A stretch of 25,801 nucleotides of DNA from positions 1 through 25,801 of IMG/VR virus record IMGVR_UViG_2582581315_000004, one strand, 5' to 3'. This DNA comes from a virus. Its lineage: Duplodnaviria; Heunggongvirae; Uroviricota; Caudoviricetes. The notes beneath the pieces are model-generated. The model ran no database searches, was not told where the DNA came from, and was given only the letters and a program-made list of their open reading frames with translations. The position numbers and the translations under genes were made by a program. The first letter of the stretch is position 1, and each line of letters opens with the position of its first letter. Shown here one piece after another: positions 3,011-23,962 of this stretch.

Positions 3011-3642
3011 CGTTTGCTGGCCCCGATTGCATCCAGTCCTTCGTCGCGTGCGCGCGTCAGCTCGTTAAAAGCCTCCGTCGAACCGCCGGGCGAATCCGGG
3101 TGTAGGTATCTCGATTTTGCCCGGTACCGATCTTTGAGATACGCGGCGCTGATCGGCTCGGTCGGACCGAAGCCAAAGACCTCTCTCCAGGTGCGCCTGC
3201 CTGGCTCCGGTAGCGCGAGGAAGCCGGTGAACATCTCGGAGAGCGAAGCAACGCCGTAGCGCTCGATCGCCCGCGTGGCCTCGATATGCTTGGCAATGGC
3301 TGCGATATTGTCGGCAACGCGGTCATATCTATCGCAGGGCAGGCAGTGCGGTTTGCCTGCGAGTGTGAAGTACAGGGCCACGCCTTTGTCGGTTGGCTCC
3401 GGCTGGCCGGAGCGCGGAAGACCGTCGAGCCGAACCTGGACGTTCGACGACAACACATAGTTCTTTGCTCCCAGCAGATCGACTTCGCGCTGCAGGCGGC
3501 CAAGAGCGTCGGCAACCGTCAGAGACTCGCTGCTCGCCAGGGTTCTCCCAGGTCGGGTCACGCGCTTTCCAAAGGTCGCGCGAATGGGGGTCTTCGTCCG
3601 GGGGCGGGAAATCGGCCATTGGAGCGGGTGGGCTTGTGTCAT
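3007..3642 (-). CDS. Phage J-domain (DnaJ-like) protein, 211 aa
   Basis: C-terminal J domain with HPD (YRAKSRYLHPDSPGGSTEAFNEL); N-terminal PLQWP...CDRY..VADNIAAIA family motif; ATG3642 overlaps the upstream TGA. Confidence 0.85.
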   Translation of the reverse strand: MTQAHPLQWPISRPRTKTPIRATFGKRVTRPGRTLASSESLTVADALGRLQREVDLLGAKNYVLSSNVQVRLDGLPRSGQPEPTDKGVALYFTLAGKPHCLPCDRYDRVADNIAAIAKHIEATRAIERYGVASLSEMFTGFLALPEPGRRTWREVFGFGPTEPISAAYLKDRYRAKSRYLHPDSPGGSTEAFNELTRARDEGLDAIGASKR

Positions 3643-21947: not shown

Positions 21948-21990
21948 CATATATTCTTATGCGCATGTACTGTCAACATGCTTATGAGAA
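21948..21990 (-). promoter_or_regulatory. PL-like sigma70 promoter embedded in a 37-bp imperfect palindromic operator
   Basis: Minus strand TTGACA (21976-21971) N17 TATATG (21953-21948); operator TTCTTATGCGCAT-N11-ATGCTTATGAGAA (21954-21990) closely matches the PR site at 23920-23956. Confidence 0.8.
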
Positions 21991-22000
21991 TTTATTTTGA

Positions 22001-22028
22001 TTGACGAGAATTTCGGGAGGTGTATGTT
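22001..22028 (+). promoter_or_regulatory. Putative rightward sigma70 promoter back-to-back with PL
   Basis: TTGACG (22001-22006) N16 TATGTT (22023-22028). Confidence 0.5.
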
Positions 22029-22058
22029 CGAGATTGCTGGGGCGGGAACGTCGCCGGC

Positions 22059-22099
22059 AAAAAGAAAGACCCCGGCGACGTTGCAAGCGTCCCGAGGTC
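22059..22099 (-). terminator. Intrinsic terminator, leftward
   Basis: Minus-strand stem GACCTCGGGACG / CGTC(G)CCGGGGTC (12 bp with one G-U and one bulge, 7-nt loop), followed immediately by TTTCTTTTT. Confidence 0.75.
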
Positions 22100-22132
22100 A
22101 GACTGGAATGGATGCTTTGCGGCTGATCCAGT
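22059..22132 (-). ncRNA. Candidate ~75-nt LexA-controlled small RNA
   Basis: Bracketed by the promoter at 22167-22139 and the terminator at 22099-22059; 5' hairpin ACTGGA/TCCAGT (22132-22102); no ORF inside. Confidence 0.5.
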
Positions 22133-22133
22133 G

Positions 22134-22164
22134 AGGGAACAATAGCAATGTTCTCTTTTTGTTT
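22134..22164 (+). terminator. Possible weak intrinsic terminator, rightward
   Basis: AGGGAACA-ATAGCAA-TGTTCTCT hairpin followed by TTTTGTTT; it overlaps the LexA box and promoter, so it may be coincidental. Confidence 0.4.
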
Positions 22165-22167
22165 CAA
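22139..22167 (-). promoter_or_regulatory. Leftward sigma70 promoter with extended -10
   Basis: Minus strand TTGAAA (22167-22162) N17 TATTGT (22144-22139), preceded by TGn. Confidence 0.68.
22150..22164. promoter_or_regulatory. Alphaproteobacterial LexA (SOS) box, one mismatch
   Basis: GTTC-TCTTTTT-GTTT versus consensus GTTC-N7-GTTC, with a T-rich spacer; overlaps the -35 and spacer of the leftward promoter. Confidence 0.6.
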
Positions 22168-22183: not shown

Positions 22184-22533
22184 CAAGCTTCATGGGATGT
22201 CTCGACCGCAAGGCGAGACCCCGCAGCCTCGGCATAGCCGAGCTACTGATGGGTAGTTGGGGGCCACGATGTTCGCCCCATGAAGTTGCGCTAGGACACG
22301 GGTGGTTCAGGTGCCTCTGCCATTTATCAGAGGAAAGGGACGAGCAAAGCGCAATGGGAATCCGAAACCCTGCTCGTGAGATCAGCCTTCCAGAGGCTAA
22401 AGAAACGGATCATGAACCGGGCTGGTAAGTGCCGCCATATGGCATGCCGGGGATGCACGGAAACCTCAGAACACTCAGTCGAGTGCTGAACGCGTGCAGT
22501 GCCTATAGGTCGGTTTTCAATCCGGCCTATAGG
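22184..22533. ncRNA. Candidate structured non-coding RNA segment; strand unresolved
   Basis: Dense nested helices, including 22186-22196/22277-22287, a GCAA-tetraloop hairpin (22199-22219), 22454-22498 and 22502-22533; no convincing ORF. Confidence 0.4.
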
Positions 22534-22614
22534 GATTGTTCTGCCCATTTCCTAGAAGCCTAGTCGTTGCTGAATAGAGTTAACTACCTAAATAATAACA
22601 ATAAATAGAGAGAG

Positions 22615-23052
22615 TCATTGCCGAATTGAGTCAATTGCGCGCATGAGGCGTTCTTCCGCATGTTCCGCGGTTGGCGGGCGGTTATCTCTATTCGTTGAAA
22701 ATTTGTATAGTTCGACGATCGATCGAGCTTTTTGCGCGGCGGAAATCCTGCCAGCCAGGCCTATTCGCAGCACGGCTTCTTCGATGGCAATAATCGCCCG
22801 ATAAAGCAGATCGAAATCAAAGGCGTGTTTTGGTCCGCACAAAATTTCAGTTGGCGAGCACCCATAGACCTCAGCGGCGCGCTCTAGGAGGCGCTGTGTA
22901 TAAGGCGACTTTGCATTCTCAATTTGAGACAACAACGGCCGGGAAATATTTAATTCTGCAGCCGCCGCTTGTTGCGATATGCCACGCAGATTTCGCCATT
23001 CGCGCAAATACGTCTTTTGCAACTGATACTTAGGCTTAGCGATTGGTGCCAC
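22615..23052 (-). CDS. XRE-family HTH transcriptional regulator (145 aa from GTG23052; track start TTG23097)
   Basis: YLREWRNLRGISQQAAAAELNISRPLLSQIENAK...LLERAAEVYGCSPTEIL; GGAG SD before GTG23052. Confidence 0.88.
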   Translation of the reverse strand: MAPIAKPKYQLQKTYLREWRNLRGISQQAAAAELNISRPLLSQIENAKSPYTQRLLERAAEVYGCSPTEILCGPKHAFDFDLLYRAIIAIEEAVLRIGLAGRISAAQKARSIVELYKFSTNRDNRPPTAEHAEERLMRAIDSIRQ

Positions 23053-23139
23053 ACGCTTCTCCGTTGCAACTCTGAGGGTGATATTCTTGACCTGCAAGCA
23101 AGTAAAAGTTTTATTGACACCAGATCATGTAAAATGACA

Positions 23140-23297: not shown

Positions 23298-23513
23298 ATG
23301 GAAACACGCAGGCAATTATTAAAATCAGCATCAATTTTGGCCGCCGCTGCGGCGGTGGCCATCCCAACTAAACCCTTGGCCGCAAAGCCGGCTGATGAGT
23401 GCGAGCTGTACGCCAACAAGTTATGCGACTCTCTAGCTAGAAAGTTTGGCGGAAAATGGCAATTCCAGTTGACCGCGGGGCAAGACGCCATGCTGGTATG
23501 CAAAAACCTATGA
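23298..23513 (+). CDS. Small twin-arginine (Tat) signal protein, 71 aa
   Basis: AAGGAG SD; N-terminal TRRQLLK, hydrophobic SILAAAAAVAI, PLA/A cleavage site; ~43-aa mature part with 3 Cys. Confidence 0.78.
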   Translation: METRRQLLKSASILAAAAAVAIPTKPLAAKPADECELYANKLCDSLARKFGGKWQFQLTAGQDAMLVCKNL

Positions 23514-23882
23514 TGAACTGTCTTCCTGGCGTTTTTTCATCAGGGAGAATGTTTCGGCCATGTCGGTGAGCTGCTGCTTTAGCGACACATCCATAGTTTC
23601 CATGATGGAAATCACCCGCTGGATATAGGGATCGCTATCCTTGGTCGTCAGATGAACTGCCGGCGTCTTTCCAGTCACCTGCTCATAAAGCGCATAGATC
23701 TTGACGGCATATTTTGCATCGGGTGTTTGGGGCCGAATACTTTTTGTGCCGAGCCATTTGCTTATGTACGGTTGAGGCACGCCCATATCATTGGCCATGC
23801 GAATTCGCGGCTTTCCAATGCCGTCGGATTGGTAAGCTGCTTCGATTTCTTTCAACAGATCTAAAAGATTCTTCTCTTCCAT
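23508..23882 (-). CDS. CI-like HTH repressor without an S24 peptidase domain (124 aa from ATG23882)
   Basis: HTH-like RIRMANDMGVPQPYISKW; divergent from the cro-like gene; the track extension to 23945 runs through the promoters. Confidence 0.72.
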   Translation of the reverse strand: MEEKNLLDLLKEIEAAYQSDGIGKPRIRMANDMGVPQPYISKWLGTKSIRPQTPDAKYAVKIYALYEQVTGKTPAVHLTTKDSDPYIQRVISIMETMDVSLKQQLTDMAETFSLMKKRQEDSSS

Positions 23883-23889
23883 GGGCAGG

Positions 23890-23918
23890 ACTATAACATT
23901 CCTGCGCGCATAAAACAA
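23890..23918 (-). promoter_or_regulatory. PRM-like promoter of the repressor gene, leaderless geometry
   Basis: Minus strand TTGTTT (23918-23913) N17 TATAGT (23895-23890) with TGn; only 7 nt from the -10 to ATG23882. Confidence 0.65.
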
Positions 23919-23919
23919 A

Positions 23920-23962
23920 TTCGTACAAGCATATTGACATGACATGCTTGTAAGAATATGTT
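23920..23962 (+). promoter_or_regulatory. PR-like promoter embedded in a 37-bp palindromic operator
   Basis: TTCGTACAAGCAT-N11-ATGCTTGTAAGAA (23920-23956); TTGACA (23934-23939) N17 TATGTT (23957-23962); 6 nt to ATG23969. Confidence 0.82.

Follow-up and report, generated by a model that had tools for sequence, protein, structure and literature searches.

The window analysed here, a stretch of 25,801 nt, opens a 113-kb provirus record, of which it makes up the first 25.8 kb, and it contains a lambdoid immunity region whose gene order and coordinates are given in Table 1. The palindrome in which PL lies resembles the PR/OR region at 23910-23959 in inverted orientation, with ~82-84% similarity. 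Judged by its relatives, the phage is placed in the Rhizobiaceae; the nearest named homologue of its repressor comes from Rhizobium lusitanum, and the prophage is integrated beside dusA. Two features of the repressor's surroundings deserve mention. On the minus strand of 23880-23920, TTGTTT-N17-TATAGT ends 7 nt ahead of the ATG at 23882, and the repressor mRNA may therefore be leaderless, for which lambda cI is a precedent. A 71-aa protein with a twin-arginine signal (23298-23513) is encoded by a gene that runs towards the repressor gene and extends over the stop of the latter, and this protein is conserved in the relative L001.

Table 1 Features of the immunity region and of the module upstream of PL (window coordinates).
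Feature	Position	Strand	Description
Lambdoid immunity region	within window		leftward recombination operon, PL, module, ORF-less gap, HTH_3, Tat-signal gene, repressor, Cro-like gene
Leftward recombination operon			RecT-like, exonuclease-VIII-like, AAA/SbcC-like, two small ORFs
PL	21948-21991	minus	-35 TTGACA 21976-21971, -10 21953-21948; inside OL palindrome 21991-21953
P_as, putative rightward promoter	22001-22028	plus	TTGACG, 16-nt spacer, TATGTT; back-to-back with PL, outside OL palindrome
RNA-R, predicted antisense RNA	22035-22167	plus	~130 nt; complementary to all of RNA-L
RNA-L, predicted non-coding RNA	22059-22132	minus	74 nt; start inferred from the -10
RNA-L intrinsic terminator	22059-22099	minus	bulged 12-bp stem 22099-22068, U-tract 22067-22059
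RNA-L 5' hairpin	22102-22132	minus	6-bp stem ACUGGA/UCCAGU, 19-nt loop
RNA-R predicted terminator	22133-22167	plus	hairpin 22133-22157, T-tract 22158-22167; overlaps P_sos and LexA-type box
P_sos, promoter-like site	22139-22167	minus	-35 TTGAAA 22167-22162, 17-nt spacer, TG 22147-22146, -10 TATTGT 22144-22139
LexA-type operator, AAAC-N7-GAAC	22150-22164	minus	AAAC-AAAAAGA-GAAC; covers -32 to -18 of P_sos
ORF-less gap			~450 bp, between module and HTH_3 gene
HTH_3 gene	22615-23097	minus
Repressor gene			124 aa; no peptidase domain, no S24 family match

Directly upstream of PL, the initial annotation had described a leftward promoter, TTGAAA-N17-TATTGT with TG at 22167-22139, a LexA-like box AAAC-AAAAAGA-GAAC over its -35 and spacer, and a short SOS-induced RNA ending in a terminator. 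The promoter elements and the box, at 22164-22150 of the minus strand, are indeed present. Single-window statistics are weak for both, and the case for them rests on comparison among related variants: in 3.1 kb we counted five promoter-like sites against 2.9 ± 1.9 expected, so that P_sos is not beyond chance in the window alone. Across the eight variants introduced below, its -35 is invariant (8/8), the spacer is 17 nt long in every case, and TGnTAT is kept in seven, yet this motif sits in the loop of a hairpin formed on the plus strand. The -10 is weak, with a final T found in the window and absent in the other seven variants.

Folding of the RNA from 22135 to 22055 gave a free energy of -27.4 kcal/mol (z = -2.3) and reproduced the 5' hairpin (22132-22102), the 12-bp terminator hairpin and the U-tract ending at 22059 that had been read from the sequence before. 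The predicted RNA is 69-74 nt long in all variants. Its 5' stem starts exactly at the predicted +1 and is invariant, apart from one G.U in L113; the 5' loop, free in sequence and 15-20 nt in length, is the least conserved part. Since the stem at 22102-22132 is invariant while the loop varies in both sequence and length, an RNA hairpin fits better than a protein-binding palindrome. A palindrome, GAGAACAT...ATGTTCTC, was also considered as an operator for a phage regulator and rejected, because the second copy expected of such an operator is absent from the 113 kb.

The terminator stem is followed by UUUCUUUUU, which ends at 22059. Read on the minus strand, the element has the GC-rich 12-bp stem, the U-tract (8 U in 9, kept in 8/8 variants) and the compensatory changes of an intrinsic (Rho-independent) terminator. 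Pairing is maintained in 96/96 cells on the minus strand vs 90/96 on the plus strand; covariation is seen at three pairs (U.G/C-G/U-A, G-C/A-U and A-U/G-C), and the wobble pairs would not hold if the plus strand were read. Covariation in related prophages, which the initial annotation had named as a check, is thus found, as is the conservation of box and terminator on which it had staked its reading: the half-sites and the terminator are kept in all eight variants. The alternative 11-bp helix that it had drawn between 22047-22057 and 22072-22082 fared worse, as it forms in the centroid structure of the window and is conserved in no relative.

Consistent with the earlier statement that the RNA contains no ORF, no reading frame is conserved across the variants: small ORFs on either strand include none common to the variants and none that is hydrophobic. 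An Rfam scan at the gathering score and at E <= 5 returned only a chance-level Trp-leader match (E = 0.26), and tRNA and tmRNA scans of the window returned nothing. In silico, the data support an autonomous, non-coding leftward unit immediately upstream of PL that possesses both a promoter-like site and a covarying terminator.

The initial annotation leaves out two elements, a perfect LexA box near int, to which we return, and a convergent unit that would be transcribed rightward through the same DNA. In the promoter of the latter, P_as, all eight variants retain TTGAC[GA] and TAT..T around a 16-nt spacer that is unrelated in sequence from one variant to another, and for this reason P_as reads as a real promoter. 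We had also considered P_as as an equivalent of PRM and dropped the idea, since the likely PRM at OR is placed 9 bp further in. The first ~25 nt of the predicted RNA-R (22035-22059) are not conserved in sequence; a hairpin forms there in 8/8 variants (7/8 at p <= 0.04) and is stabler on the plus strand, with summed energies of -78 vs -58 kcal/mol. At the other end, the pairing of the predicted terminator holds in 61/64 cells on the plus strand vs 56/64 on the minus strand, with compensatory changes at two positions, in L025, L113 and L114. The predictions thus describe a cis-antisense pair, with convergent conserved promoters, overlapping transcripts and strand-specific terminators. One DNA segment would hold three jobs at once, as LexA operator, promoter spacer and opposite-strand terminator.

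The module of ~170 bp, adjoining PL on its upstream side, is kept in eight distinct prophage variants (the window; L013 from R. lusitanum assembly GCA_010668395.1; L014/L015; L016/L001; L025; L112; L113; L114), and all counts of conservation and covariation given here refer to these eight related variants only. Identity between variants is ~90% within the module vs ~70% in the flanks. In L001/L016 and L014, similarity to the window begins exactly at the -35 of the leftward promoter; L025 has an intact module although its upstream HTH gene has been cut short and the HTH promoter exchanged. Both the sharp boundary and the survival in L025 argue that the module is an autonomous unit tied to PL. 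Three of the variants, L112, L113 and L114, are heteroimmune, with differing PL/OL operators and repressors, and retain the module. In these three (about 3100-3230), the same left operon and RNA module accompany a PL operator type made of repeats of TGCCGTTTGGCA. Because the operator type differs, the module crosses immunity groups. The retention of the module by heteroimmune prophages with different repressors also makes it unlikely that the RNA is an antirepressor aptamer that binds the repressor, as had been suggested. The module is rare, being found in one of the 401 family genomes and one of the 173 genus genomes searched. Phage and plasmid collections contained no BLAST match to the region, pattern scans of viral, metagenome and genome contigs returned only L001/L008 or chance matches of 17-20-mers, and a repressor-based scan of genome contigs found nothing.

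We then considered what controls P_sos. Its box has AAAC, not GAAC, as the first half-site and thereby departs by one base from the strict GAAC-N7-GAAC/GTTC-N7-GTTC direct repeat. Generic one-mismatch boxes occur at chance level in the 113 kb (107 vs ~83 expected), and because of this frequency a generic count alone would wrongly dismiss the site. The half-sites AAAC and GAAC are invariant in 8/8 variants and the spacer occurs in four versions; this conservation is confounded, however, because the box overlaps the -35 and an arm of the plus-strand terminator hairpin. Host promoters allow a comparison of another kind, made here with Rhizobium genomes centred on the R. lusitanum lysogen, which may not be the window's own host. 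The R. lusitanum genome carries an AAAC-N7-GAAC box in both the recA and the lexA promoter, the latter adjoining a perfect GAAC-N7-GAAC. The pattern AAACAAA-N3-AGAAC occurs only three times in this 7.8-Mb genome, in recA, in lexA and in the prophage. In 26 relatives it yielded ~50 matches vs 12 for the reversed control, most of them in lexA, recA and dinB promoters, and it marks the recA and lexA promoters in about 20 species. Since the pattern was derived post hoc, after the recA and lexA sites had been seen, we also tested the phage's own exact 15-mer, which is free of that weakness. It is present in 15/173 Rhizobium genomes vs 0/173 for the reversed control, and 12-13 of its 14 host copies are located just after the -10 of dinB promoters, in 12-13 Rhizobium species.

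The conserved alphaproteobacterial LexA core, with the motif GTTC-N7-GTTC, includes dinB, recA and lexA (PMC3323433). At the Rhizobium loci L094-L107 and L055-L092, an invariant GTTCTCTTTTTGTTT follows the dinB -10, AAACAAA[AT][AG]TAGAAC is found upstream of recA, and AAACAAATCCAGAAC stands inverted beside the perfect box of lexA. In this genus, the 'one-mismatch' AAAC-N7-GAAC is a standard operator for these three genes. The LexA-type operator of the initial annotation therefore gains in silico support, being of the same variant as those of the host SOS genes, and LexA probably binds the box at 22150-22164. A 15-mer of this class, AAACAAAAGGAGAAC, is the box of L025; in six Rhizobium genomes (L061, L062, L075, position 1501) it also provides a 100-aa MazG-like gene with its ribosome-binding region. 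Given this double use, some copies of the pattern may not be LexA sites.

To look for partners of RNA-L, we scanned the whole record for duplexes, searched for exact complementary words, and compared own-versus-other duplex matrices over the PL leader and ±3 kb; none of these revealed a trans target that is conserved or that co-evolves with the variable loop. The loop of L014 shows an isolated 12-nt match to an ORF6N gene, of which about 0.07 would be expected by chance. The convergent unit is the only conserved pairing partner predicted for RNA-L. Variability of the RNA-L loop is what one would expect in that case, because the partner would be encoded on the same DNA. With a variable loop on an invariant stem and no trans target, the best reading of the locus is therefore a putative SOS-gated sense/antisense pair beside PL.

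In this model, to which we give about even credence, the locus would be a self-contained, PL-attached module of two convergent and fully overlapping small transcription units, a LexA-gated RNA-L, made from a putative sigma-70-type promoter whose -35 and spacer lie under the operator, and an antisense RNA-R. The comparative data suggest that these predicted RNAs may act as a switch that senses DNA damage. What is observed is the anatomy of the sequence, its conservation and covariation, and the identity of the box to host SOS operators; from these we infer transcription starts, LexA binding, an interaction between the two RNAs and its consequence, which might run as follows. In the lysogen, LexA would hold RNA-L off and RNA-R would be produced. 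DNA damage would remove LexA, and RNA-L would rise. RNA-L could then pair with RNA-R via its long loop to give a duplex, and polymerases would also collide head-on. The balance between RNA-L and RNA-R would flip, resembling the threshold logic of SOS-controlled sense/antisense pairs, and the flip might relieve an insulating antisense RNA or pass some transcription towards the left operon. The SOS-RNA proposal of the initial annotation thus stands in part: the autonomous non-coding unit and its host-type operator hold up, and the alternative helix and the repressor-binding aptamer fall away. It is quite doubtful that induction of this prophage, with its non-cleavable repressor, is signalled by the LexA-released 74-nt RNA as such, which would tip the switch to lytic growth through removal of the lysogenic antisense RNA or through some other target.

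Four other explanations were weighed against the sense/antisense module. LexA might not bind the box at all, and the box might be conserved because the leftward promoter needs it for its -35 and spacer and the rightward terminator for its 3' arm and U-tract, which would leave a constitutive sense/antisense pair or an insulator with no SOS input. We regard this as unlikely. In its favour, the box differs from GAAC-N7-GAAC by the one mismatch that puts it in a class of chance frequency, and every one of its positions is under another constraint. Furthermore, for the spacer changes of L025 and L113 the opposite arm shows compensatory substitutions, and the plus-strand hairpin is for that reason under selection. 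Yet terminators need no AAAC...GAAC in particular, the exact 15-mer serves as the dinB operator in those 12-13 species while the reversed control is absent, and boxes of the AAAC type are conserved in the recA and lexA promoters.

Somewhat less probable is the explanation that only RNA-R is a gene. Here the leftward hairpin and U-tract would be an immunity-type terminator, of which lambda t_imm is an example, blocking transcripts of the HTH gene before they reach PL, and TTGAAA...TAT would be inactive. P_as is indeed the better supported of the two promoters, with both hexamers conserved around a variable spacer, and the -10 of P_sos is weak. Because the upstream hairpin at 22533-22502 has no minus-strand U-tract, HTH transcripts may continue to 22059. 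However, L025 keeps the module intact with its HTH gene truncated and the HTH promoter replaced. TGnTAT is retained in 7/8 variants within a hairpin loop, where terminators impose no sequence constraint, and the invariant ACUGGA stem begins precisely at the predicted +1.

We consider it improbable that P_sos is an SOS-gated auxiliary promoter of the left operon, attenuated by the terminator, whose read-through crosses the repressed PL and whose 74-nt RNA is a mere by-product. The constant attachment of the module to PL and the left operon, whatever the upstream DNA or immunity type, and the direction of P_sos, which is that of PL, would be in keeping with such a role. On the other hand, compensatory changes maintain a strong terminator, with a GC-rich stem of 12 bp and 8 U in 9, no anti-terminator is conserved, the alternative helix of the window being absent in relatives, and the combination of a 5' hairpin at +1 and an opposing antisense unit is better explained by a stable small RNA. 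That promoter-like and hairpin motifs fell together by chance and do nothing, a view for which the weak single-window statistics could be cited, is barely credible and contradicted by the comparative data, namely the ~90% identity of the element against ~70% in its flanks, the compensatory changes in two hairpins and the conservation of a third in structure only.

The sense/antisense module can be set beside several known systems. By analogy, its closest precedent is the OOP RNA of lambda with its promoter pO. OOP is a 77-nt antisense RNA with a LexA-binding sequence in the oop-pO region (PMC5869508, citing Lewis et al. 1994), and it acts with RNase III (PMC2327240). As predicted, RNA-L would likewise be a small phage RNA with its own promoter and terminator, antisense to a convergent transcript and with a LexA site at the promoter. 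They differ in that the partner of OOP is a protein-coding mRNA, that of cII, overlapped at the mRNA's 3' end, whereas the partner of RNA-L is another predicted small non-coding RNA, and in that OOP lies in the replication region, whereas the module adjoins PL. In addition, the LexA motif of the module is an alphaproteobacterial direct repeat, unlike that of OOP, and no sequence or Rfam relation links the two.

In E. coli, the pairs symE/SymR, tisB/IstR and dinQ/agrB each oppose a LexA-repressed transcript with an antisense RNA that sets a threshold. This family of pairs is named in PMC2887945. These SOS pairs share the logic proposed here but encode a small toxin, whereas the module has no conserved or hydrophobic ORF; with no ORF common to the variants on either strand, it does not qualify as a type I toxin-antitoxin system of the tisB/istR kind. 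Face-to-face promoters with polymerase collision and antisense pairing are known from pR/pL of coliphage 186 and from prgQ/prgX of pCF10 with Anti-Q. The overlapping transcripts from such promoters are the point of likeness; those systems control coding operons directly, whereas the module products are predicted to be short terminated RNAs, one of them from a LexA-boxed promoter. The dinB promoter-operator of Rhizobium carries the identical 15-bp operator, with 18 bp identical in G460. There, the box stands just after the -10 on the coding strand, whereas the phage box covers -32 to -18 and also forms the opposite-strand terminator.

LexA-controlled antirepressors such as Tum of 186, AntC of N15 and those of Gifsy/Fels-2 are proteins, and to our knowledge a temperate phage whose repressor is non-cleavable is known to sense SOS only through such protein antirepressors. 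The present prophage resembles the Tum type in having a repressor without a cleavable domain and a LexA-type operator on a separate phage promoter. It differs in that the product of the module is predicted to be non-coding, with no protein gene behind the LexA operator at this locus, and in that a protein unit with a perfect LexA box is present elsewhere in the prophage. Only if the 74-nt RNA were itself the induction signal, which we hold to be doubtful, would it be an RNA counterpart of the Tum/AntC protein antirepressors. The module would offer a compact and tractable case of a host LexA operator wired to a non-coding sense/antisense pair beside an early promoter, in rhizobia, where prophage control has been little studied.

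The perfect LexA box, GAACATTTTGAGAAC (GAAC-N7-GAAC), lies outside the window at G000 108593-108607 (L093 3094-3108), just after the integrase gene, and precedes a unit encoding a 181-aa protein, a 169-aa protein and an SRAP peptidase. The R. lusitanum prophage has a homologous 181-aa/169-aa/SRAP unit, and some 330 nt upstream of it stands a perfect GAACATAATAGGAAC. We regard this int-adjacent unit as a candidate protein-level SOS or antirepressor module. It may be the main SOS input of the prophage, and it could carry the SOS signal without any RNA.

Lastly, the ORF-less segment at 22330-22545 is ~93-95% identical in L013 and L014, above the neighbouring HTH gene, and is swapped for unrelated DNA in L001/L016 and L025. 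No Rfam family matches it, a perfect 12-bp hairpin occupies 22502-22533, and the segment is a candidate for either a structured RNA or a mobile module.
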